From NCBI GenBank assembly GCA_964588585.1, contig CAZPPX010000009.1:119338-151337 (forward strand): a stretch of DNA of 32,000 bases. Reading direction: 5' to 3'. Both the position numbers and the translations under genes were made by a program. The DNA is from an uncultured Phycisphaeraceae bacterium. GTDB taxonomy: Bacteria; Planctomycetota; Phycisphaerae; Phycisphaerales; UBA1924. This document shows positions 11,047 to 20,964 of the stretch, one piece after another (position 1 is the first letter of the stretch; each line of letters starts with the position of its first letter). Under the pieces are notes generated by a model, which had not been told where the DNA came from, did not search any database, and saw nothing but the letters and a program-made list of their open reading frames with translations.

Positions 11047-11067
11047 GTCTGACACGTCTCAGACGTG
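11047..11067. promoter_or_regulatory. overlapping palindromes (candidate operator/UAS) in the argF-groEL1 divergent spacer
   Basis: GTCTGA-cacgtc-TCAGAC overlaps CACGTC-tca-GACGTG. Confidence 0.25.
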
Positions 11068-11198
11068 AGCAGGCATTGGCCATCGCCACAATCCGACCTG
11101 ACTCCCCGGAAACGGCCCGCGACCTGCCTCGAAAGGGCCCGACGTGGCGCGGCGGCAACCGCGATCACCCAGCCCAGCGCCACGCCCGCGTTCTTGGC

Positions 11199-11213
11199 TG
11201 GCACACACCTTGC
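11199..11213 (+). promoter_or_regulatory. sigma-54-type -24/-12 promoter-like motif upstream of groEL1
   Basis: TGGCAC-acacc-TTGC has the exact core and spacing of the TGGCAC-N5-TTGC consensus. It is in the + orientation, 107 nt before the groEL1 ATG. Confidence 0.3.
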
Positions 11214-11319
11214 CAATACCCTCTCACGCCATCGGCTCGCCACGAGCGACCGATGGTTTTCCCCGAACGTCCCCCGGACTGATTTTCGACTCTCAACCTT
11301 TAGACCCGGAGCCCTGAAG

Positions 11320-13095
11320 ATGGCCGCCAAGGAACTCGCGTTTGATGTGGATGCCCGCCAGTCGCTGTTTGCGGGGGTTGAGAAGTTGGCGCGGGCGGTG
11401 AAGGCCACGCTCGGGCCCCGCGGCCGCAACGCGGTCCTCGACAAGTCCTGGGGCGGGCCCACCGTGACCAAGGACGGCGTGACGGTCGCCGAGGAGATCG
11501 AACTCACCTGCAAGATCGAGAACATGGGGGCCCAACTGGTTAAGCAGGCCGCCAGCAAGACCAGCGACGACGCGGGCGACGGCACCACCACCGCCACCGT
11601 GCTCGCCGAGGCGCTCTTCCGTGAGGGTCTCAAGCACATCGCTGCGGGCTGCGATGCCAACGCGCTGGTTCGCGGCATGAAGAAGGCCGTGGAGGCCGCG
11701 TCGGCCGCGATCGAGAAGCAGGCCACGCCCGTCAGCGGCAACAAGGACATCGAGAACGTCGCCAGCATCTCGGCCAACAACGACTTCGAGATCGGCAAGA
11801 TCATGGCCAACGCCTTCGCCAAAGTCGGCAAGGACGGCGTCATCACCGTTGAAGAAGGCAAGACCGCCGAGACCGAAGTGACCGTGGTCGAAGGCATGCA
11901 GTTCGACCGCGGCTTCCTTTCGCCCAACTTCGTGACCAACGTCGAAGCCATGAAGTGCGAGTTCGACAAGGCCCTGGTCCTCATTCACGAGGACAAGATC
12001 GACAACGTGCAGAAACTCGTGCCGCTGCTCGAGAAGGTGATGCAGGCGAAGAAGCCGCTGCTGATTATCGCTGAAGACGTTACGGGCGAAGCCCTGGCGA
12101 CGCTGGTCATCAACAAACTGCGCGGCACGCTGCAGGTGTGTGCCGTGAAGGCCCCGGGTTATGGTGATCGCCGCAAGGCGATGCTGGAGGATATCGCGAT
12201 CCTCACCGGTGCCGAGGCAATCATGAAGGACACCGGCGCGGAACTCGAGAAGGTCGAACTGAAGCACCTGGGCATGGCCAAGAAACTCGAGGTCGATGCC
12301 GACAACACGACGATCATCGAGGGCGCGGGCAGCACCAAGGACATCCAGGCCCGCATCGAGCAGATCCGTCGCGAGATCGAGGCCACCTCCAGCGATTACG
12401 ACCGCGAGAAGGCCCAGGAGCGCCTCGCCAAGTTGTCCGGCGGGGTGGCCCAGGTGAAGGTCGGCGCGGCCAGCGAAGCCGAACTGAAAGAGAAGAAGGC
12501 CCGCGTCGAGGACGCGCTGCATGCCACCCGCGCCGCGGTCGCCGAGGGCGTGGTTCCCGGCGGTGGGACCAGTTTCATCCGCGCTCGCAAGGCGATCGAG
12601 GCCCTTCCCGAGTGGAAGATGGTCTACAGCAAGAAGGCCACCGCCGACGGCGATGTGACGTCCGAAGACATCGGCAGTTTCAAGTTTGACGCGGCCGCCG
12701 GCATGGACACGGTGCACAAGGCGCTGCTCGTGCCCCTCCAGACGATTGCCGACAACGCGGGCGACAAGGGCACCGTCGTGGTCGCCAAGGTCATCGAAGG
12801 CGGCGACGGCAAGGCCGGCGCATCCTTTGGCTACAACGCCCTCACCGGCGAATATGGCGACCTGCTCAAGCAGGGCGTGCTGACCCCGGCCAAGGTTGAC
12901 CGCACGGCACTCGTGAATGCCGCGAGCGTCGCGACGGTGCTGCTGACCAGCGACTGCGTGATCACCGACGCCCCGAAGGACGAAGACGAAGGCCACGGGC
13001 ACGACCACGGGCACGGCGGCGGTGGCATGGGCGGGATGGGCGGCGGGATGCCGGGCATGGGTGGAATGGGCGGCATGGGGGGAATGGGGTTCTGA
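11320..13095 (+). CDS. groEL: chaperonin GroEL, paralog 1 (591 aa; internal insertion and His-rich plus GGM C-terminal tail)
   Basis: [40 protein letters not shown]...[10 protein letters not shown]... is canonical GroEL. GGAG lies 9 nt upstream of the ATG. Tail [38 protein letters not shown]. Confidence 0.97.
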
Positions 13096-14286: not shown

Positions 14287-14517
14287 ATGCCCTCAGCCAA
14301 AGACCTCTTCAACAAACTCGGCAACTCCGGCGGCGGCTTCAAGCCCGTCGCCAAGTCCGTCATTCCCAATGCCGCCGATTCCAAGGCCGACGCCAAGGCC
14401 GCTGTCAGCGGGCACAAGGCCACCGAGGCTTTGAAGGACGGCCCCAAGAAGGGCGGTGGAGGTGGTGCCGGCGGCGGTGGCGGCACCGTGCCCATCGGCG
14501 TGCGCCCCAAGGTCTGA
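14287..14517 (+). CDS. hypothetical 76-aa low-complexity protein with a poly-Gly run
   Basis: ATG at 14287 with GGAG 6 nt upstream. Sequence MPSAKDLFNKLGNSGGGFKP...KKGGGGGAGGGGGTVPIGVRPKV. High GC, unlike the preceding cassette. Confidence 0.5.
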   Translation: MPSAKDLFNKLGNSGGGFKPVAKSVIPNAADSKADAKAAVSGHKATEALKDGPKKGGGGGAGGGGGTVPIGVRPKV

Positions 14518-14530
14518 CCTGTTCCCCGCC

Positions 14531-14562
14531 CTGGGTACCTCGACTCTCCGAGTCGAGTCCCC
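14531..14562 (+). terminator. conserved hairpin element, copy 1 (TGGGTACCTCGAYTCTCCGARTCGAGTCCC)
   Basis: CTCGACTC-tcc-GAGTCGAG (14539-14557), 14 nt after the stop at 14517. A near-identical copy lies at 22660-22690. Confidence 0.5.
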
Positions 14563-14645
14563 GTTCCCGTCTTCTTTCCTTTCCTCCCTCTTCCTCCTCT
14601 TCCTCATCTTTCCGATCCTCCCCGTTTTCCTCCTTCTTTCTTCTC
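14558..14645 (+). repeat. ~88-nt polypyrimidine (CT-rich) tract
   Basis: Only about 6 purines occur in tccccgttcccgtcttctttcctttcctccctcttcctcctcttcctcatctttccgatcctccccgttttcctccttctttcttctc. Confidence 0.8.
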
Positions 14646-14678
14646 GGTGCTTCCTCGGTGTCTCTGTGCCTCGGTGGT
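14641..14678 (+). repeat. solo copy of the CTCGGTG-repeat arm
   Basis: ttctcggtgcttcctcggtgtctctgtgcctcggtggt matches 18397-18434 at 35 of 38 positions. It ends 9 nt before the dedA ATG. Confidence 0.7.
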
Positions 14679-14687
14679 TAGCCTCTT

Positions 14688-15368
14688 ATGCAGCAGATCC
14701 TCGACATCTTCCTGCACCTTGACCGTCACCTGGGCGAGTTGATCGCCCAGCACGGCGCGTGGGTGTACGCGATTGCCGCGGGGATCATCTTTGCCGAGAC
14801 GGGCTTGGTCGTGATGCCCTTCCTGCCCGGCGATTCGCTGCTGTTTGCCCTCGGCGCGTTCACGTCGTCGGACGGCGAAGCCACGCGGCTCAACCTGTGG
14901 GTGCTGCTCGGCACGCTCACGATTGCCGCGATCATCGGCGACGCGGTGAATTATCACGTCGGCAAGTACCTCGGCCCGCGCGTCTTCCGCGGCGAGGGCT
15001 TGGGCTTCTGGGGCAAACTGCTCAACCGCAAGCATCTCGACCGCGCCCACGCGTTCTACGACAAATACGGCGGCAAAGCCGTGGTGCTGGCGCGGTTCGT
15101 GCCCATCGTCCGCACGTTCGTCCCTTTCGTCGCGGGCGCGGGCGCGATGAACTACGGCAAGTTCGTCTTCTACAACATCGCCGGCGCCGTCGCCTGGGTC
15201 TTCATCTGCGTGCTCGCCGGCCACTGGTTCGGCAACATCCCCTGGGTGAAGAAGAACTTCGAAATCGTCGTCCTCGGCATCATCGTCGTCTCGATCATGC
15301 CCATCGTCGTGGAAGTCATCATGAGCCGCCGGAGCGCCAAGGTCGCGCCGGTCGCGCCGTCCGTCTGA
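14688..15368 (+). CDS. DedA family inner-membrane protein (VTT/SNARE-associated domain)
   Basis: FAETGLVVMPFLPGDSLLFALGAF, NYHVGKYLG and ARFVPIVRTFVPFVAGAGAMNY are typical DedA motifs. Confidence 0.9.
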   Translation: MQQILDIFLHLDRHLGELIAQHGAWVYAIAAGIIFAETGLVVMPFLPGDSLLFALGAFTSSDGEATRLNLWVLLGTLTIAAIIGDAVNYHVGKYLGPRVFRGEGLGFWGKLLNRKHLDRAHAFYDKYGGKAVVLARFVPIVRTFVPFVAGAGAMNYGKFVFYNIAGAVAWVFICVLAGHWFGNIPWVKKNFEIVVLGIIVVSIMPIVVEVIMSRRSAKVAPVAPSV

Positions 15369-15375
15369 ACTGTCT

Positions 15376-15415
15376 TCTTTGGCCATTTGGTCATCTGGCA
15401 ATTTGGTATTTGGAG
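15376..15415 (+). repeat. five 8-nt-periodic YTTGG units abutting the groES SD/ATG
   Basis: tctTTGGc caTTTGGt caTCTGGc aaTTTGGt atTTGGag. The last unit merges with the GGAG SD. Homologous to 20466-20503. Confidence 0.7.
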
Positions 15416-15421
15416 TAACCC

Positions 15422-15712
15422 ATGTCCATCAAGCCCCTCGAAGATCGCGTCCTTGTCAAGCCCATCGAAGCCGAGAGCAAGACCGCCTCGGGCATCTTCC
15501 TCCCCGAGTCGGCCAAGGAGAAGCCCGTCCGCGGCAAAGTCATCGCCGCCGGTCCGGGCAAACTGCTCGAAAACGGCAAGCGCGCCGAGATGAGCGTGAA
15601 GATCGGTTCCACGGTCGTCTACGGCAAGTACGCCGGCTCCGAAGTCGAACTCAAGGGTGAGAAGCACCTGATCATCAAGGAGAGCGAGCTCCTCGGCGTC
15701 ATTGAGGGCTGA
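15422..15712 (+). CDS. groES: co-chaperonin GroES
   Basis: MSIKPLEDRVLVKPIEAESKTASGIFLPESAKEKPVRGKVIAAGPG... is canonical Cpn10. Confidence 0.97.
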   Translation: MSIKPLEDRVLVKPIEAESKTASGIFLPESAKEKPVRGKVIAAGPGKLLENGKRAEMSVKIGSTVVYGKYAGSEVELKGEKHLIIKESELLGVIEG

Positions 15713-15759
15713 GGCATAGGCACTAGGCATCAGGCACTGGGCACTGGGCACTAGCAGAA
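15713..15759 (+). repeat. left arm: six tandem heptamers GCAYYRG
   Basis: GGCATAG GCACTAG GCATCAG GCACTGG GCACTGG GCACTAG cagaa, starting directly after the groES stop. Confidence 0.85.
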
Positions 15760-15763
15760 TGAT

Positions 15764-16138
15764 ATGAGTGACATTCACTCACATCGCGACTTGCTTGTCT
15801 GGCAGAAAGCCGTCGATCTCGCGCTTGAGATCTACGCAATCTGCCGCAGCCTACCCGAGTCTGAACGATTTGGGTTGATTGCCCAGTTGCGCCGCGCCGC
15901 CGTGTCCGTGGCCAGCAACATCGCTGAGGGTTATGGTCGTGGCAGCACGGCGGATTACATCCGCTTCCTGCGCGCGGCACGCGGTTCGCTCTACGAGATC
16001 GATACGCAGTTGCTCATCGCCTGTCGGCTCGAGTACGTGCAGCAGAGCGCGTATGAGGCCGTTCTCAAGCACGTCAATGAAGTCGGACGAATGCTCGCCG
16101 GCCTGATTCGCACGCTCGAACAAGGTTCGAAATCCTGA
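15764..16138 (+). CDS. four-helix-bundle protein (23S rRNA intervening-sequence protein family)
   Basis: HRDLLVWQKAVDLALEIY...LPESERFGLIAQLRRAAVSVASNIAEGYGRGSTADYIRFLRAARGSLYEIDTQLLIA matches the family signature. GC is visibly lower than in the neighbouring genes. Confidence 0.9.
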   Translation: MSDIHSHRDLLVWQKAVDLALEIYAICRSLPESERFGLIAQLRRAAVSVASNIAEGYGRGSTADYIRFLRAARGSLYEIDTQLLIACRLEYVQQSAYEAVLKHVNEVGRMLAGLIRTLEQGSKS

Positions 16139-16170
16139 CCACACCACCGCACGGGAATGGACGCCAGGCC

Positions 16171-16203
16171 TTCTGCTAGTGCCTAGTGCCCAGTGCCCAG
16201 TGC
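16171..16203 (+). repeat. right arm: inverted heptamer array
   Basis: ttctg CTAGTGC CTAGTGC CCAGTGC CCAGTGC is the reverse complement of the left arm with one extra unit. It ends 17 nt before the groEL2 ATG. Confidence 0.85.
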
Positions 16204-16220
16204 CTCTCCGAGGTATCCCC

Positions 16221-17834
16221 ATGTCTGCCAAACAACTCATGTTCAACGATGCCGCCCTCCTCGAAATGAAGAAGGGCGTGGCCCAACTGGCTCGCGCTGT
16301 CAAGGTCACCATGGGCCCTTCCGCCCGTCATGTGGCTATTCAGAAGTCCTACGGCGGGCCCTCCATCTCCAACGACGGCGTCTCGGTCTCGAAAGAGATC
16401 ACCCTCCCCGAGCCCTTTGAATCCATGGGCGCGAAGATGGTCACCGAGGTCGCCAAAAAGACCAACGACGAAGCCGGCGACGGCACCACCGCCGCCACCG
16501 TGCTCGCCGAGGCCATCTTCACCGAAGGCCTGCGCCACGTGGCCGCCGGGGCCAACCCCGTGCTGATCCAGCGCGGCATCAACGGCGCGGCCCAGGCCGC
16601 GGCCGAAGCCCTCGACGCCATGGCCGTGAAGTGCAAGGGCAAGGCCGATTACGTCAAGGTCGCCACGGTCTCCGCGTCGCACGACGCGAAGATCGGCGAA
16701 CTGATCGCCGAGGCAATCACTAAGGTCGGTGCCGAGGGCGTGGTCGAGGTCGAAGAGGGCAAGGCCGCCGAAACCACGCTCGAATACGTCGAGGGCATGG
16801 CGTTCGACAAGGGGTACATCAGCCCCTACTTCATGACCGACCCGAAGACCACCGAGTGCGTGCTCGAAGATTGCTACGTCCTGCTCTACGAGAAGAAGAT
16901 CGCCAACCTCGCGGACTTCCTCCCGTTCCTGAACAAGATCGCGACCACCGGCAAGCCCCTGCTGGTTGTTGCTGAGGAAGTCGAGAGCGAGGCGCTTGCC
17001 GCGCTCGTCGTGAACCGCCTCCGCGGCGTGCTCAAGATCTGCGCCGTGAAGGCCCCGGGCTTCGGCGATCGCCGCAAGGCCATCATGGGCGATGTGGCCG
17101 TGCTCACCGCCGGCACGTTCTTCAGCGAGGACCTGGGCCGCAGCCTCGAATCGATCGAACTGGGCGAACTCGGCCGTGCCAAGAAGGTCGTTATCAACAA
17201 GGACGAGACGACCATCATCGAGGGCGCAGGCAAGAAGGGCGACATCGAGGCCCGTGCCGCCCAGATCAAGGCCCAGCACGACAAGAGCACCAGCGACTAC
17301 GACCGCGAGAAGTTCAACGAGCGCCTTGCCAAACTCACCGGCGGCGTCGCCATCATCAACGTCGGCGGCCTCTCCGAAGTCGCCATGAAGGAGAAGAAGG
17401 ACGCCGTCGACGACGCCCTGAACTCCACCCGTCACGCGGCCAAGTCCGGCTACGTTCCCGGTGGCGGCGTGGCGCTCATCCGCACCCAGCCCGCGATCGA
17501 GAAGGCCATGGGCAAGGCCAGGGGCGACGAGAAACTGGGCTACGAGATCGTCTCCGCTGCGGTCGAGGCCTGCGCCAAGCAGATCGCCGTGAACGCCGGC
17601 CAGGATGGCGACATCGTGGTCGAAAAGATCAAGGAGGGCACCGGCGGTTTCGGCTACAACGCCCAGTCCCACGAGTACACCGACCTGGTGAAGGCCGGCA
17701 TCATCGACGCGGCCACGGTCCCCAGGACGGCCCTGCTCAACGCCGCCAGCGTCGCGGGCCTCATGCTGACCACCAGCGTGATGATCGCGGAACTGAAGGA
17801 TAAGGCCCAGCCGGTGACGGGCGCGGTGGCGTGA
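16221..17834 (+). CDS. groEL: chaperonin GroEL, paralog 2 (537 aa, no GGM tail)
   Basis: MSAKQLMFNDAALLEMKKGVAQLARAVKVTMGPSARHVAI...DGTTAATVLA... Ends ...AELKDKAQPVTGAVA. Confidence 0.97.
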   Translation: MSAKQLMFNDAALLEMKKGVAQLARAVKVTMGPSARHVAIQKSYGGPSISNDGVSVSKEITLPEPFESMGAKMVTEVAKKTNDEAGDGTTAATVLAEAIFTEGLRHVAAGANPVLIQRGINGAAQAAAEALDAMAVKCKGKADYVKVATVSASHDAKIGELIAEAITKVGAEGVVEVEEGKAAETTLEYVEGMAFDKGYISPYFMTDPKTTECVLEDCYVLLYEKKIANLADFLPFLNKIATTGKPLLVVAEEVESEALAALVVNRLRGVLKICAVKAPGFGDRRKAIMGDVAVLTAGTFFSEDLGRSLESIELGELGRAKKVVINKDETTIIEGAGKKGDIEARAAQIKAQHDKSTSDYDREKFNERLAKLTGGVAIINVGGLSEVAMKEKKDAVDDALNSTRHAAKSGYVPGGGVALIRTQPAIEKAMGKARGDEKLGYEIVSAAVEACAKQIAVNAGQDGDIVVEKIKEGTGGFGYNAQSHEYTDLVKAGIIDAATVPRTALLNAASVAGLMLTTSVMIAELKDKAQPVTGAVA

Positions 17835-17852
17835 GCCCTTCGAGAAGATTTA

Positions 17853-17904
17853 CCACCGAGACACCGAGACACCGAGACACCGAGACACCGAGGGAGCACC
17901 GAGG
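17853..17904 (+). repeat. left arm: tandem octamers CACCGAGA
   Basis: c CACCGAGA x4, CACCGAGG, gag, CACCGAGG, starting 19 nt after the groEL2 stop. Confidence 0.9.
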
Positions 17905-17954
17905 TGTAAGAGAGTTGTTATACAGGCTGTTGGGATTGCTCCTGCCAGCCTGCT

Positions 17955-18362
17955 TTGAGGACCGCAGCACCCATTTTGGCGGCCAATGTTGAGGGCCACG
18001 ACCCGCTGACCGAATCAATCATCGGCGCGGCGATCGATGTGCATCGCGCGCTGGGGCCGGGGTTGCTTGAATCGGCGTACGAGGAATGTCTCGCGATCTC
18101 CATGCGTACGCGCGGATTGGACGTGGCGCGGCAGGTCGAACTGCCGATCGAGTTCATGGGGCACACGATCAAGCCCGCTTACCGCCTTGACATGTTGGTG
18201 AACCAGCAAGTCGTGATGGAGATCAAGGCCGTGGAGGCGCTCCAGCCGATCCACGAGGTTCAACTGCTTACCTACCTGCGACTCTCCTGCAAGCGTATCG
18301 GCCTCCTTATCAACTTCTGTGTTCCGATCCTCAAAGACGGCATCCGCCGACGTGTCGTTTAG
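17955..18362 (+). CDS. GxxExxY family protein (PD-(D/E)XK nuclease-like fold)
   Basis: ESIIGAAIDVHRALGPGLLESAYEECLAISM...YRLDMLVNQQVVMEIKAV...QLLTYLRLSCKRIGLLINF carries the GxxExxY motif as GLLESAY. There is no ATG; the start is TTG at 17955 or 17976. Confidence 0.85.
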   Translation: MRTAAPILAANVEGHDPLTESIIGAAIDVHRALGPGLLESAYEECLAISMRTRGLDVARQVELPIEFMGHTIKPAYRLDMLVNQQVVMEIKAVEALQPIHEVQLLTYLRLSCKRIGLLINFCVPILKDGIRRRVV

Positions 18363-18397
18363 GCCTGTGTGTCCGGCCTTTTGTTCTCCCTCTCTCT

Positions 18398-18433
18398 TCT
18401 CGGTGCTCCCTCGGTGTCTCGGTGTCTCGGTGG
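18398..18433 (+). repeat. right arm: inverted octamer array
   Basis: 18399-18432 is the perfect reverse complement of 17870-17903 (34 nt). It ends 20 nt before the dnaJ ATG. Confidence 0.9.
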
Positions 18434-18453
18434 TTCTGCCTTGGTGAAGTCTT

Positions 18454-19605
18454 ATGCCCTCAACCCGCGACTACTACGAAATCCTGGGCGTCGACAAGAA
18501 AGCCGACGCGGAGGAGATCAAGCGCGCCTATCGCCGGGCCGCGATGAAGCACCATCCCGACCGCAACCCGGGCGACGCGGAGGCCGAGCGGGCGTTCAAA
18601 GAAGCCGCTGAGGCGTACGAAGTCCTCGCCGACGAGCAGAAGCGCAAGGTCTACGACCAGTACGGGCGCGAGGGCCTGAAGTCCGCCGCCGCCGGGCCCG
18701 CGGCGCACGACTTCTCGCGCATGAACGTCGAAGACATCTTCTCGATCTTCGGCGACATCTTCGGCAATGGTGCAGGTGGCGGTCAGCGCCGCGGCGGCCA
18801 TCGCGGCCCGCCCCGCGGGTACGACCTCGAAACCGAAGTGGCCATTACGCTCGAAGAAGTGCTCAGCGGCTGCGAGCGCGAGGTGGAGTTCACGCGGCTC
18901 GATGTCTGCGAAAAATGCACCGGCTCGGGCGCGAAGGAAGGCTCCAAGCCCGTCTCGTGCCCGCACTGCGGCGGCCAGGGCAAGGTGCAACAGACCGGCC
19001 TCGGTGGCATGTTCCGCATGGTCACCGCCTGCCCCGCCTGCCGCGGACGCGGGAAGGTCATCAAGGAGTTCTGCTCCGCCTGCCGTGGCAAAGGCCGCGT
19101 CGCCAAGCAGCGCACGATTGCCGTGCGCATCCCGCCGGGTATCCACGATGGCCAACCGATCCGGGTGAAGGGCGAGGGCGAGCCGCCGGTGCCCGAGGAA
19201 TCGCCCGCGGGCGAGGGCATCCGGGGCGACCTGCACGTCGTGGTGCGCGTGCGCGAGCACAACCATTTTCAGCGCGAGCAGGATCACTTGCTGCTCGAAG
19301 TACCCGTGTCGTTCGCAAAAGCCGCGCTGGGTGGAGAGATCGATATCCCCACGCTCGAAGGCGGCCGGGAAAAACTCGCCGTGCCCCGCGGCACCCAGCA
19401 CGGCACCATCCTCCGCATCCCCGCCAAGGGCCTGCCCGACCTTCGCACGCAACGCCGCGGTGACCTGGTGATCGGCGTAAAGATCGAGATTCCCACCAGC
19501 CTGTCGAAAGAGCAGGAAAAACTCCTCCGCGAGTTCGCCGCGGGCGAGAACGAATCAGTGATGCCCGAGAGCCAAGGGTTTTGGAAAAAGGTCTTCGGCG
19601 GCTGA
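18454..19605 (+). CDS. dnaJ: molecular chaperone DnaJ (type I, with Zn-finger domain)
   Basis: J-domain DYYEILGV...HHPDRNPGD, a G/F region, and four CxxCxGxG repeats ([32 protein letters not shown]). Confidence 0.95.
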
Positions 19606-19617
19606 GCAACGCGTGCC

Positions 19618-19792
19618 TCCACCACCCTCCCCCGCTCCCAGCGGGGGAGGCGGCATTTGGGGGGCGAGGCTTTGCGAGTGACGGAGGGGGGATTGGGTGA
19701 CGGCAGATGATCGCGACGCACATGCATCCAACGAGAGCCCCCTCCGCCTCACTCCGCTCGGCACCTCCCCCGCTGGGAGCGGGGGAGGGTGG
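19618..19792. repeat. composite inverted pair of REP-like hairpins (CCACCCTCCCCCGCT family), MITE-like
   Basis: CCTCCCCCGCT-ccc-AGCGGGGGAGG (19626-19650) and CCTCCCCCGCT-ggg-AGCGGGGGAGG (19764-19788) are mutually inverted. Further imperfect complementarity links GAGTGACGGAGGGGG (19676-19690) with CCCCCTCCGCCTCACTC (19738-19754). Confidence 0.6.
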
Positions 19793-19861
19793 TAAGACGA
19801 AACCGACAGCCTTCCACTCCTATGGTGAATTGAAACGATCGAAACTTCCCGAGCAGCAACC

Positions 19862-20464
19862 ATGGATTTCTTCAAACCCAAGCCCAAGCCAGAGCAGCCC
19901 GCCGCCAGCGAACCCGCCGCACCCGCCGCGTCCGCCGAACACGCCGAAACCGCAGACGCTTCCCGCACGGTCGACGAAACCGCGGCGGAGTTTGAGCGGC
20001 TGGACGCCGAGATCGTCAAACTGCGCGCTGAGCGCGATGAAGCCATCGACGCGCACAAGCGCGCCCTCGCCGATTTCCAGAACTACCAGCGCCGCGCCCA
20101 CCAGAACGAGCGCGACGCACGCGAACAGGCCGTCCGTGGCGTGCTGAGCAACATCCTCTCTGTGGTTGACCACTTCGACATGGCCTTGGGCCAGGACCCG
20201 ACCAAGACCACCGCCGCGGCGATCATCAGTGGCGTGACCATGATCAAGGAAGAACTCCTCGGCGCCCTCACGCAGCACGGCGTCGGACTCATCCGCCCCC
20301 AACCCGGCGACACCTTCGACGCCACGCGCCACGAAGCCGTCTTCCAGCAACCCGCCGAGGGCATCGCCCCCGGCCATGTCTCCGCCCTCATGCGCATCGG
20401 CTACACGGTCAATGAACGCGTCGTCCGCCCCGCCCAAGTCGCCGTCGCCCCCGCCGCAGATTGA
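19862..20464 (+). CDS. grpE: nucleotide exchange factor GrpE
   Basis: ALADFQNYQRRAHQNERDAREQAV...VVDHFDMAL...GYTVNERVVRPAQV. Confidence 0.93.
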   Translation: MDFFKPKPKPEQPAASEPAAPAASAEHAETADASRTVDETAAEFERLDAEIVKLRAERDEAIDAHKRALADFQNYQRRAHQNERDAREQAVRGVLSNILSVVDHFDMALGQDPTKTTAAAIISGVTMIKEELLGALTQHGVGLIRPQPGDTFDATRHEAVFQQPAEGIAPGHVSALMRIGYTVNERVVRPAQVAVAPAAD

Positions 20465-20473
20465 ATCCGTCTT

Positions 20474-20503
20474 CATTTGGCCATTTGGCCATTTGGCCAT
20501 TTG
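20474..20503 (+). repeat. 3.75 tandem octamers CATTTGGC abutting a start codon
   Basis: CATTTGGC CATTTGGC CATTTGGC CATTTG, then aac and the ATG. Confidence 0.85.
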
Positions 20504-20506
20504 AAC

Positions 20507-20866
20507 ATGCCCACCTACGAATACAAGTGCAAAGCCTGTGATCACCGGTTCGAGCAGTTCCAGTCGATGACCGCCGCGCCGATCAAGGTCTGTCCGGAGT
20601 GCAAGAAACGTAAGGTTGAAAGGCTCATCGGCACCGGTGCCGCGCTGCTGTTCAAGGGTTCGGGTTTCTACACCACCGACTATCGCTCCGACGGCTACAA
20701 AAAGAAGGCCGAGGCCGACAAGCCCGCTTCCGACGCCAAGCCATCGACCGATTCCAAGCCCGCAGCGCCTGAGGCGAAACCCGCAGCACCCGTCGAAACC
20801 AAACCGGCACCGAAGCCCGAGACGACAGATCGCTCAAAGTCGGACAAGAGCCCGAAAAAACGCTAA
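20507..20866 (+). CDS. FmdB-family zinc-ribbon protein with a Lys/Pro/Ala-rich tail
   Basis: MPTYEYKCKACDHRFEQFQSM...VCPECKKRKVERLI has the CxxC...CxxC signature. The tail contains KKKAEADKPASDAKPSTDSKPAAPEAKP... Confidence 0.85.
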   Translation: MPTYEYKCKACDHRFEQFQSMTAAPIKVCPECKKRKVERLIGTGAALLFKGSGFYTTDYRSDGYKKKAEADKPASDAKPSTDSKPAAPEAKPAAPVETKPAPKPETTDRSKSDKSPKKR

Positions 20867-20885
20867 CCATGCACGCGGGCATAAA

Positions 20886-20920
20886 CCACCCTCCCCCGCT
20901 CCCAGAGCGGGGGAGGGTGG
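20886..20920 (+). terminator. REP-like hairpin, copy 3
   Basis: CCACCCTCCCCCGCT-cccag-AGCGGGGGAGGGTGG forms a 15-bp stem, 20 nt after the stop at 20866. No U-tract. Confidence 0.55.
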
Positions 20921-20964
20921 TGTTGAGAGTCAGCGCACGCGAACACCTCACCCTAAACTCCACC

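Follow-up and report, generated by a model that had tools for sequence, protein, structure and literature searches.

The 32,000-nucleotide (nt) window analyzed here (positions 119,338 to 151,337 of contig CAZPPX010000009.1, from an uncultured Phycisphaeraceae bacterium) has a GC content of 66%, and the homologs of its genes are from the Phycisphaerales (Planctomycetota). It contains a chaperone cluster of co-directional genes in the order DedA, groES, an open reading frame (ORF) of 124 amino acids (aa), groEL, an ORF of 119-135 aa, dnaJ, grpE and FmdB (Table 1). The subject of this study is the 124-aa ORF. Its product belongs to a family of four-helix-bundle (4HB) proteins known from intervening sequences (IVSs) of 23S rRNA, and the ORF is enclosed by two inverted tandem arrays of heptamers in the groES-groEL spacer. 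We call the arrays arms, and the arms together with the ORF a cassette.

The groES stop abuts the left arm, which begins at the base after the stop (TGA followed directly by GGCATAG). Tandem Repeats Finder places the left array at 15712-15754 (period 7, 6.3 copies, AGGCACT) and the right array at 16176-16205 (period 7, 4.3 copies, CTAGTGC). Together with direct reading, this confirms the heptamer arrays that a preliminary description of this DNA, made from the sequence alone, had noticed after the groES stop and before groEL. That description gave the right array as 16176-16203, ending 17 nt from the groEL ATG; the start is correct, but the array runs two bases further. Both of its pairing blocks hold to the base, one of 12 bp (15748-15759 with 16171-16182) and one of 14 bp (15734-15747 with 16190-16203), with one heptamer left over. 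An inverted-repeat search returns 15725-15759 / 16171-16205 (35 nt, 89% complementary) around a perfect core of 23 nt, 15732-15754 / 16183-16205 (100%). The folding check that the description had proposed was run on 15700-16225. The minimum-free-energy structure takes a register other than that of the two blocks and has an unbroken 27-bp helix, 15733-15759 with 16171-16197, G·U pairs included (z = -6.4; none of 100 shuffles is as stable); overall, the predicted stem is one of 27-35 bp. As a measure of bracketing, each ORF is given the score of the best inverted repeat that its 150-nt upstream flank forms with its 150-nt downstream flank. The window cassette scores 24, compared to 8 for a right flank moved away by 300 nt and no more than 9 for shuffled right flanks. 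The right arm ends 15 nt 5' of the groEL ATG (16221), at the edge of the groEL ribosome-binding region. Just 3' of it, a small hairpin is possible over the ribosome-binding motif (16203-16214, CCUC-UCC-GAGG), and the right flanks of two orthologs introduced below, L012 and L019, have a corresponding candidate, CUCC-GAA-GGAG; such a hairpin might act as a thermosensor.

Table 1. Features of the chaperone cluster and of its two cassettes, in window coordinates.
Feature	Position	Strand	Description
DedA	14688-15368		
groES, upstream host gene	15422-15712	+	NCBIfam GroES models, E = 1.8e-37
Left arm	15712-15759	+	~6 tandem heptamers (GGCAYNR), then CAGAA; 5' strand of predicted long-range stem
Enclosed ORF, 124 aa	15764-16138	+	PF05635, TIGR02436, PDB 2gsc
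Right arm	16171-16205	+	TTCTG, then ~4 heptamers (YNRTGCC); 3' strand of predicted stem
groEL 5' leader outside cassette	16203-16220	+	holds GAGG, Shine-Dalgarno-like motif
groEL, downstream host gene	16221-17834	+	TIGR02348, E = 3e-215
Second cassette, left arm	17854-17903	+	CACCGAGA x4.9 (array 17854-17892), then GGGAGCACCGAG
Second cassette ORF, GxxExxY / PDDEXK_3 protein, 119-135 aa	17955/18003-18362	+	PF13366, TIGR04256
Second cassette, right arm	18399-18432	+	CTCGGTGCTCCC, then CTCGGTGT x2.9 (array 18410-18432)
dnaJ	18454-19605		
grpE	19862-20464		
FmdB-type zinc ribbon gene	20510-20866		

The loop was said to hold a single 124-aa ORF of the rRNA-IVS family, and it does. The protein matches PF05635 with E = 2.9e-39 (134 bits; cut-off 33.8), TIGR02436 with E = 1.4e-38 (131.4 bits; cut-off 24) and NF008911 with 145.7 bits (cut-off 137). 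Its closest solved relative is XCC0516 (PDB 2gsc, E = 6e-26), an entry of five chains; the reference cited for it in PMC3936711 is quoted there as describing five four-helix bundles. The ORF has a GC content of 0.589 and a GC content at third codon positions (GC3) of 0.70, lower than the 0.83-0.92 of the neighboring genes. It is under purifying selection.

The order groES-4HB-groEL recurs in 13 orthologous loci among those fetched for comparison, which carry L numbers (L011-13, L016-17, L019-20, L022, L025, L085, L178 and L180-181); the 10 numbered up to L085 come from species-representative genomes. Of all homologs of the 4HB protein, the three closest (76%, 71% and 71% identity) come from more distant Phycisphaerales, each with its gene in the groES-groEL spacer. 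All 13 orthologous cassettes keep arms, so that relatives with the ORF at this site and no arms, a finding that would have told against the preliminary description, are not among them. The units of the arms vary (GGCACTR, AGGSATT, GGCATCR, GGGAWTC, GGCAATG and GGGACCS), and each left arm matches its own right arm with a mean score of 21.8, compared to 10.4 against the right arms of other cassettes. RNAalifold, applied to the flank alignment of the 13 orthologs, gives a helix of 27 pairs with 90.7% of the cells paired. In 15 of the 27 pairs, both sides have changed (54 cells), and none of 500 column shuffles reaches such values. When the partner is slid by 1-3 columns, pairing falls to 27-46%. 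The GG.A positions of the heptamer are almost invariant, and the remaining positions vary jointly with their partners. The groES stop and the left arm are separated by 0-8 nt. In 11 of the 13, the right arm stops 11-17 nt short of the groEL ATG, directly at a GGAG ribosome-binding motif; in L012 and L019 the distance is ~25 nt. A Shine-Dalgarno-like motif precedes the start of the cassette ORF in most orthologs.

Empty groES-groEL spacers, which the preliminary description had suggested looking for, exist among close relatives. The closest, L091, has 96% amino-acid identity in DedA and ~90% nucleotide identity in groES/groEL, and its 161-nt spacer has neither ORF nor arrays. L096/L097 (84%) also lack the cassette. 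L092 (84%) has an unrelated 140-aa ORF in the spacer and no arrays, and L094 (84%) has a 102-nt spacer with a lone array like a right arm, CAGTGCCTAGCGCCTATCGCCTAGCGCCT, adjoining a CTCTCC...GGAG leader as in the window. We read this lone array as a relic of the cassette. Because distant lineages keep the cassette while close relatives are without it, it is an old resident that has been lost in some lineages, an ancient, conserved occupant of this spacer across the Phycisphaerales. The occupied site substitutes for the entire ancestral spacer rather than showing a clean insertion, no direct repeat that could be a target-site duplication flanks the arms, and the differences between the window and L091 are not clustered at the cassette junctions, as they might be in a recombination tract. 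No paralog above 76% identity is present in a protein collection of 5.8 billion clusters that includes the NCBI source assembly, which argues against recent transposition. The ORF is conserved to about the same degree as the host genes: between the window and L178, identity is 76% in the 4HB protein, 60% in DedA, 72% in groEL and 66% in dnaJ. Across the orthologs, identity to the window varies from 52% to 76% in the 4HB protein but only from 71% to 75% in groEL, a hint that lineages have exchanged cassettes at the groES-groEL site.

To see how general the bracket is, we took 80 loci with 4HB homologs from species-representative genomes of Planctomycetota, Bacteroidota, Acidobacteriota, Desulfobacterota, Firmicutes, Nitrospirae, Gemmatimonadota and others. 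RNA duplex energies of the flanks were dropped as a measure, being confounded by GC differences between phyla (null mean -64 kcal/mol), and strict inverted-repeat scoring was adopted in their place, with a threshold of at least 14; the controls are right flanks displaced by 300 nt and shuffled flanks. The threshold is reached at 59 of 79 4HB loci, the window included, compared to none of 74 displaced controls (Fisher p = 2e-25), and shuffled flanks have a median maximum score of 10. This answers in the affirmative the question, raised in the preliminary description, of whether other copies of the ORF family are bracketed in the same way. The bracketing arms are nearly all tandem arrays of 7-9-mers. 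Hence, the inverted tandem-array bracket is typical of the whole 4HB family in many phyla. The same holds in a second family, GxxExxY, discussed below: in a set of 78 metagenome loci plus the window, 43 of 79 score at least 14, compared to 5 of 71 controls (p = 2e-10), and the control matches may be due partly to arrays of neighboring cassettes. The median distance of the arms from the flanking genes is 6-14 nt, and the cassette is co-directional with the upstream gene in 75 of 88 cases, with a baseline of 137/214 for adjacent pairs in the same loci (p = 2e-4; the gene calls are crude). Not one of the 160 loci fetched for the two families is situated within rRNA; the sole rRNA motif match, in L027, was not confirmed by Rfam.

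Some further arrangements were seen among the fetched loci. Twelve viral or proviral contigs from IMG/VR (L183-L194) encode 4HB homologs, 7 of them with bracketing arrays scoring at least 15, and the arms of these are mostly AGG-rich. In L042 (1298-2345), one inverted GCAAGAG/CTCTTGC array pair surrounds a 4HB ORF together with an HNH-endonuclease-like ORF. Inverted array pairs without an ORF, with loops of 20-180 nt, occur in L011, L070 (4340-4600), L026, L033, L041, L047 and L087. Finally, a partner was not detected for 315 of the arrays in the fetched loci.

The arms of the two families are distinct from each other. At least two AGG[CG]A motifs are found in the left arm of 40 of the 59 bracketed 4HB loci and of none of the 43 bracketed GxxExxY loci, while at least two CRCNGAG motifs are found in 3 of the 59 and 33 of the 43. 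The 4HB arm is made of units of AGG[C/G]Ann, ~4.4 per arm, and the GxxExxY arm of units of CRCNGAG, ~3.0 per arm. Pooled data at first suggested a constant stem length in nucleotides, and splitting the families showed that it is the copy number that is constant. The 4HB arms have 4.3-4.6 copies at periods of 7, 8 and 9 (60 of 94 arms within 3.5-4.5 copies), and the GxxExxY arms have 2.9-3.0 copies at periods of 8, 9 and 10 (27 of 30 within 2.5-3.5). Since the copies are constant over the periods within each family, the number of units is conserved rather than the length of the stem. The orientation is fixed as well: on the coding strand, the upstream array is always the purine-rich one, and the reversed 4HB motif is never found. 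Therefore, the arms have a motif and a unit number particular to the gene between them, beyond what a generic stem would have. These results modify two views of the preliminary description. It was right to call the cassette IVS-like, as borne out by the bracketing of the family and by the anatomy of the Coxiella IVS described below, but a sporadic interruption of the operon does not fit an old conserved resident whose ORF is under purifying selection. Likewise, its flanks do form a predicted stem (27-35 bp), but not merely a generic one.

The GxxExxY family is represented in the window itself by a second cassette, 1.6 kb downstream between groEL and dnaJ, with octamer arms of CACCGAGA and CTCGGTGT. 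The arms include a 34-nt perfect inverted repeat (fold z = -7.6), and the right arm ends 21 nt 5' of the dnaJ ATG (18454). The protein matches PF13366 with E = 2.2e-40 (138 bits; cut-off 22) and TIGR04256 with E = 2.2e-41 (140.8 bits; cut-off 35). The longest ORF runs from 17955, and the region conserved in the family begins at ~18003. Two of the orthologous loci, L013 and L016, also have a GxxExxY cassette before dnaJ besides groES-4HB-groEL. In L091 (3190-3298), the sequence after groEL resembles the left flank of the GxxExxY cassette of the window and carries a different arm, GCACCGCGGAT x2; the contig stops before the position of the ORF. Between groEL and dnaJ, L180 (7054-7729) has AGGCACT-type arms around a 136-aa ORF of an unrecognized family, and at the same position L178 (6195-6728) has a 138-aa ORF without a Pfam match and without arrays. 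In L011 (4524-4770), the position is taken by an inverted array pair without an ORF that encloses a GC-rich terminator-like hairpin, and this hairpin is kept 3' of groEL in L092, L094 and L096.

The rest of the chaperone cluster has several other small elements. Lone tandem arrays of 7-8-mers lie at ~15376-15412 (CCATTTGG-like) and 20474-20503 (CATTTGGC x3.8), directly 5' of the starts of groES and FmdB. The final unit of the first runs into a TTTGGAG ribosome-binding motif, and a similar array is present in the DedA-groES spacers of L091 and L092. A GC-rich palindrome like the repetitive extragenic palindromes (REP-like), ACCACCCTCCCCCGCTCCCAGCGGGGGAGG(GTGGT), occurs in three copies (19621-19650, 19764-19793 and 20885-20921). 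Two of these are in the dnaJ-grpE spacer, inverted, 30 nt in length, 100% complementary and 113 nt apart; the third is a tight hairpin 3' of the FmdB gene. In relatives, HicAB toxin-antitoxin genes are found directly 5' of groES (L181, 1166-2377; L182, 390-844), in L181 along with a nucleotidyltransferase/HEPN pair upstream of groES. The chaperone cluster seems to gather small selfish modules. A further groEL paralog lies ~3 kb upstream in the window (11065-13095). Its longest ORF has 676 aa with an N-terminal extension, and the true start probably lies later. In relatives too, a groEL paralog (~47% identity) precedes DedA. The window has no CIRCE operator within 3 mismatches. The likeness to CIRCE of the arm core, GCACT/AGTGC, is a coincidence, given that lack and the unrelated units of the orthologs. 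No Rfam family matched anywhere in the window, and hence there is no rRNA match. Neither a sigma-70-like promoter nor a plus-strand terminator was found in 14300-18600, which is weak evidence, the promoter types of Planctomycetes being uncertain. The Logan contigs L001-L010 are identical to the window and have no bearing on transcripts.

The reading that we favor, at somewhat better than even confidence, is of an IVS-type cassette that is cotranscribed with the operon, with arms that pair in the RNA as a substrate for RNase III and are probably bound by the encoded oligomer. The cassette would be transcribed within a DedA-groES-groEL-dnaJ unit. A promoter of its own is unlikely because the arms lie so close to the genes that there is no space for one, and none is predicted in the window. 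In the transcript, the arms would pair into a helix of ~30 bp closing off an insert of ~420 nt. This would put the groES stop beside the groEL ribosome-binding site and bury the start region of the cassette's own ORF. The helix would be a substrate of RNase III, as demonstrated for the homologous rRNA IVSs, and for that reason the insert would be tolerable in heavily used transcripts. The encoded oligomer would bind its own arms and so control the formation of the stem and its own expression, in a TRAP-like autoregulation. Since the unit motif and the unit number depend on the enclosed gene, we presume that the arms are probably bound in this way; 4.4 heptamers hold four to five GG.A cores, and proteins of the 4HB family form pentamers.

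Several points weigh against this reading. A comparison of G·U with A·C mismatches was meant to tell pairing in the sense RNA from complementarity at the DNA level. No excess of G·U is seen, either among all mismatches in 4HB stems (75 vs. 76) or among isolated stem mismatches with both families pooled (47 G·U vs. 49 A·C). Therefore, the complementarity could be held at the DNA level, for example by template switching between the arms, with no selection acting on the RNA. The minus strand also folds as stably as the plus strand. RNase III needs neither sequence-specific units nor a fixed number of them, and so cleavage alone does not explain the arms. S23p, the Coxiella IVS protein, is probably unmade, while the window ORF is under purifying selection and most orthologs have the Shine-Dalgarno-like motif 5' of it, and the two cases may differ. 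Finally, the binding of the arms by the encoded protein is something that we infer only from their gene-specific features. A wider conjecture, which we hold tentatively and consider doubtful in its full extent, is that the rRNA IVSs are the visible tip of a world of bacterial gene cassettes embedded in transcripts. In each, a small oligomer would be encoded between arrays that it binds, with the units matching the oligomer (four to five GG.A cores for a pentameric 4HB protein and three units for GxxExxY), and by binding, the oligomer would switch a long-range helix on which RNase III excision, protein expression and the coupling of the host genes depend. If true, such switching would let cassettes persist very long inside essential operons, such as groESL, dnaJ, cas and rRNA.

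The lack of a G·U bias would suit a selfish element acting at the DNA level, in which the arrays would form the termini of a cassette of mobile or homing type, like the foldback-type terminal inverted repeats with multiple protein-binding sites. The encoded protein, or else a partner in trans, would act on them, and pairing in RNA would be incidental. A gene-specific motif and unit number fit protein-binding ends, and presence that varies among close relatives (absent from L091, L092, L094 and L096, with a lone right arm in L094) fits mobility. So do the cassettes on viral contigs, 7 of 12 with arms scoring at least 15, the GC3 of the cassette ORFs below that of the host genes, and the hint of exchange at the same site in the 52%-76% identity of the 4HB protein compared to the 71-75% of groEL. 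The second enclosed family has a PD-(D/E)XK nuclease fold, and one bracket holds an HNH ORF beside the 4HB ORF (L042). However, the 4HB fold has no known catalytic activity, and arms 400 nt apart pair much more readily in RNA than in duplex DNA. The lack of any paralog above 76% identity gives no sign of recent transposition, no target-site duplication is visible, the whole ancestral spacer is replaced, the differences from L091 do not cluster at the junctions, and a single site is occupied across an order-level clade. We consider this alternative rather unlikely.

That same occupancy can be turned into an argument for domestication, by which the stem, the Shine-Dalgarno hairpin and/or the 4HB protein would set the groES:groEL stoichiometry or the translational response to heat shock. 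At least 13 lineages keep the cassette in the groES-groEL spacer with its ORF intact and well conserved, the arms are precisely placed (the left one within 0-8 nt of the groES stop, the right one, in 11 of 13, ending 11-17 nt from the groEL ATG at its ribosome-binding site), and the window is without a CIRCE operator. This is less likely again, in that the architecture recurs in very different contexts in many phyla and so is a property of the cassette, not of groESL, and in that four close relatives live without it. A slim chance is left for no function at all, with inverted pairs around small ORFs being made and perfected by slippage and quasi-palindrome template switching in repeat-rich intergenic DNA. 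The window does have lone arrays (~15376-15412 and 20474-20503), partnerless arrays are common among the fetched loci (315), inverted pairs without an ORF occur, and the unbiased stems would be expected. Chance of this kind does not account for the displaced controls, of which 0 of 74 reach the score, nor for arms whose motif, orientation and unit number depend on the gene between them. Moreover, the arms have persisted at the orthologous site while other intergenic sequence turned over, and the same design is functional in rRNA IVSs. We continue to favor the cotranscribed IVS-type cassette.

The cassette can be compared to a number of known systems. Bacillus TRAP is a ring protein that binds evenly spaced short RNA repeats. 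By analogy, a toroidal homo-oligomer would read a fixed number of repeats and compete in this way with another RNA helix; TRAP and the 4HB proteins are unrelated, and the likeness is no more than an analogy. REPIN/RAYT systems and eukaryotic foldback elements have a single gene or a loop between inverted repeats, and the foldback arms are made of tandem short repeats. The window differs in that there is no tyrosine-transposase-like gene, the arms differ between cassettes in one genome, and no dispersed identical copies were detected. A transposon or miniature inverted-repeat transposable element (MITE) was rejected for want of a target-site duplication and of several near-identical copies (the nearest protein is at 76%). 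An integron cassette has a single attC site, whereas the arms here flank the ORF on both sides, and no integrase is among the window ORFs scanned; no attC model was run. The Avd protein of diversity-generating retroelements (DGRs) belongs to the same four-helix-bundle fold family as the window ORF. As a candidate identity it was rejected: the ORF scores 45.9 bits against NF033474 (cut-off 80) and 33.9 against PF22296 (cut-off 40), and its neighbors are chaperone genes. No reverse transcriptase or template/variable repeats were found among 20 filtered window ORFs, and a scan of ten ORFs against family models gave no match to a reverse transcriptase.

Inverted intergenic heptamers are known in another setting, the GGGAATC arrays of Xanthomonas (Rehm et al. 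2015, PMC4692102), which are G-rich, form 70-75 convergent (inverted) pairs per genome, and keep their positions from one species to another. Xanthomonas is also the source of the 4HB protein XCC0516. These arrays are read as forming G-quadruplexes, and the available text of PMC4692102 makes no link to an enclosed ORF or to 4HB proteins. The ORF-less IVSs of Salmonella, Yersinia and Photorhabdus 23S rRNA are stem-loops removed by RNase III and are comparable to the ORF-less array pairs with loops of 20-180 nt; they differ in being located in rRNA, and tandem-repeat arms are not reported for them in PMC2672173. S23p-ORF IVSs with inverted repeats are already known, and Zhang et al. (PMC3936711) noted IVP genes within cas operons, one example lying between cmr3 and cmr2. 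In full-text searches of the literature, we found no account of a family-wide inverted tandem-array bracket, of motifs and unit counts in the arms that depend on which gene is enclosed, of a parallel GxxExxY cassette or of a chaperone operon with a conserved cassette. The two families concerned, PF05635 and PF13366, are very large and consist of "hypothetical" proteins. There is possibly a new layer of control in the core chaperone operon, and annotators should be aware that such insertions split "tight" operons.

The closest relatives in design are the ORF-bearing IVSs of 23S rRNA, for which function and origin have been an open question since the early 1990s. The IVS of Coxiella burnetii has 428 nt, with terminal inverted repeats that give a 28-bp stem, and three or four tandem heptamers (GACAGAT), their number varying by strain, just 5' of the S23p start (PMC4990558). 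RNase III cleaves the stem where the first repeat begins, which bears out the rRNA precedent invoked in the preliminary description; the IVS RNA is rapidly degraded, and S23p is probably not made, its ORF decaying (PMC4990558). The window cassette shares with the S23p IVSs of Coxiella (and Leptospira) the protein family in the loop, the size of ~430 nt, the ~28-bp stem, the heptamers, variable in number, by the start codon, and a sense-oriented ORF within heavily transcribed RNA. The two differ in the unit (GACAGAT in Coxiella, GGCACTR here) and in the state of the ORF, which is decaying and probably untranslated in Coxiella but conserved here. They differ also in location, helix 45 of 23S rRNA as opposed to an mRNA spacer. 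Hence, of the features of an rRNA IVS, the window cassette has the long stem and the S23p/PF05635 ORF in the loop, but not the position in an rRNA helix. The old question of IVS function and origin becomes testable in this form, and the favored reading would offer a reason for the presence of IVS-type genes within cas operons and rRNA. The design first seen in rRNA IVSs is then the general design of both families, found mostly in the spacers of mRNA operons.

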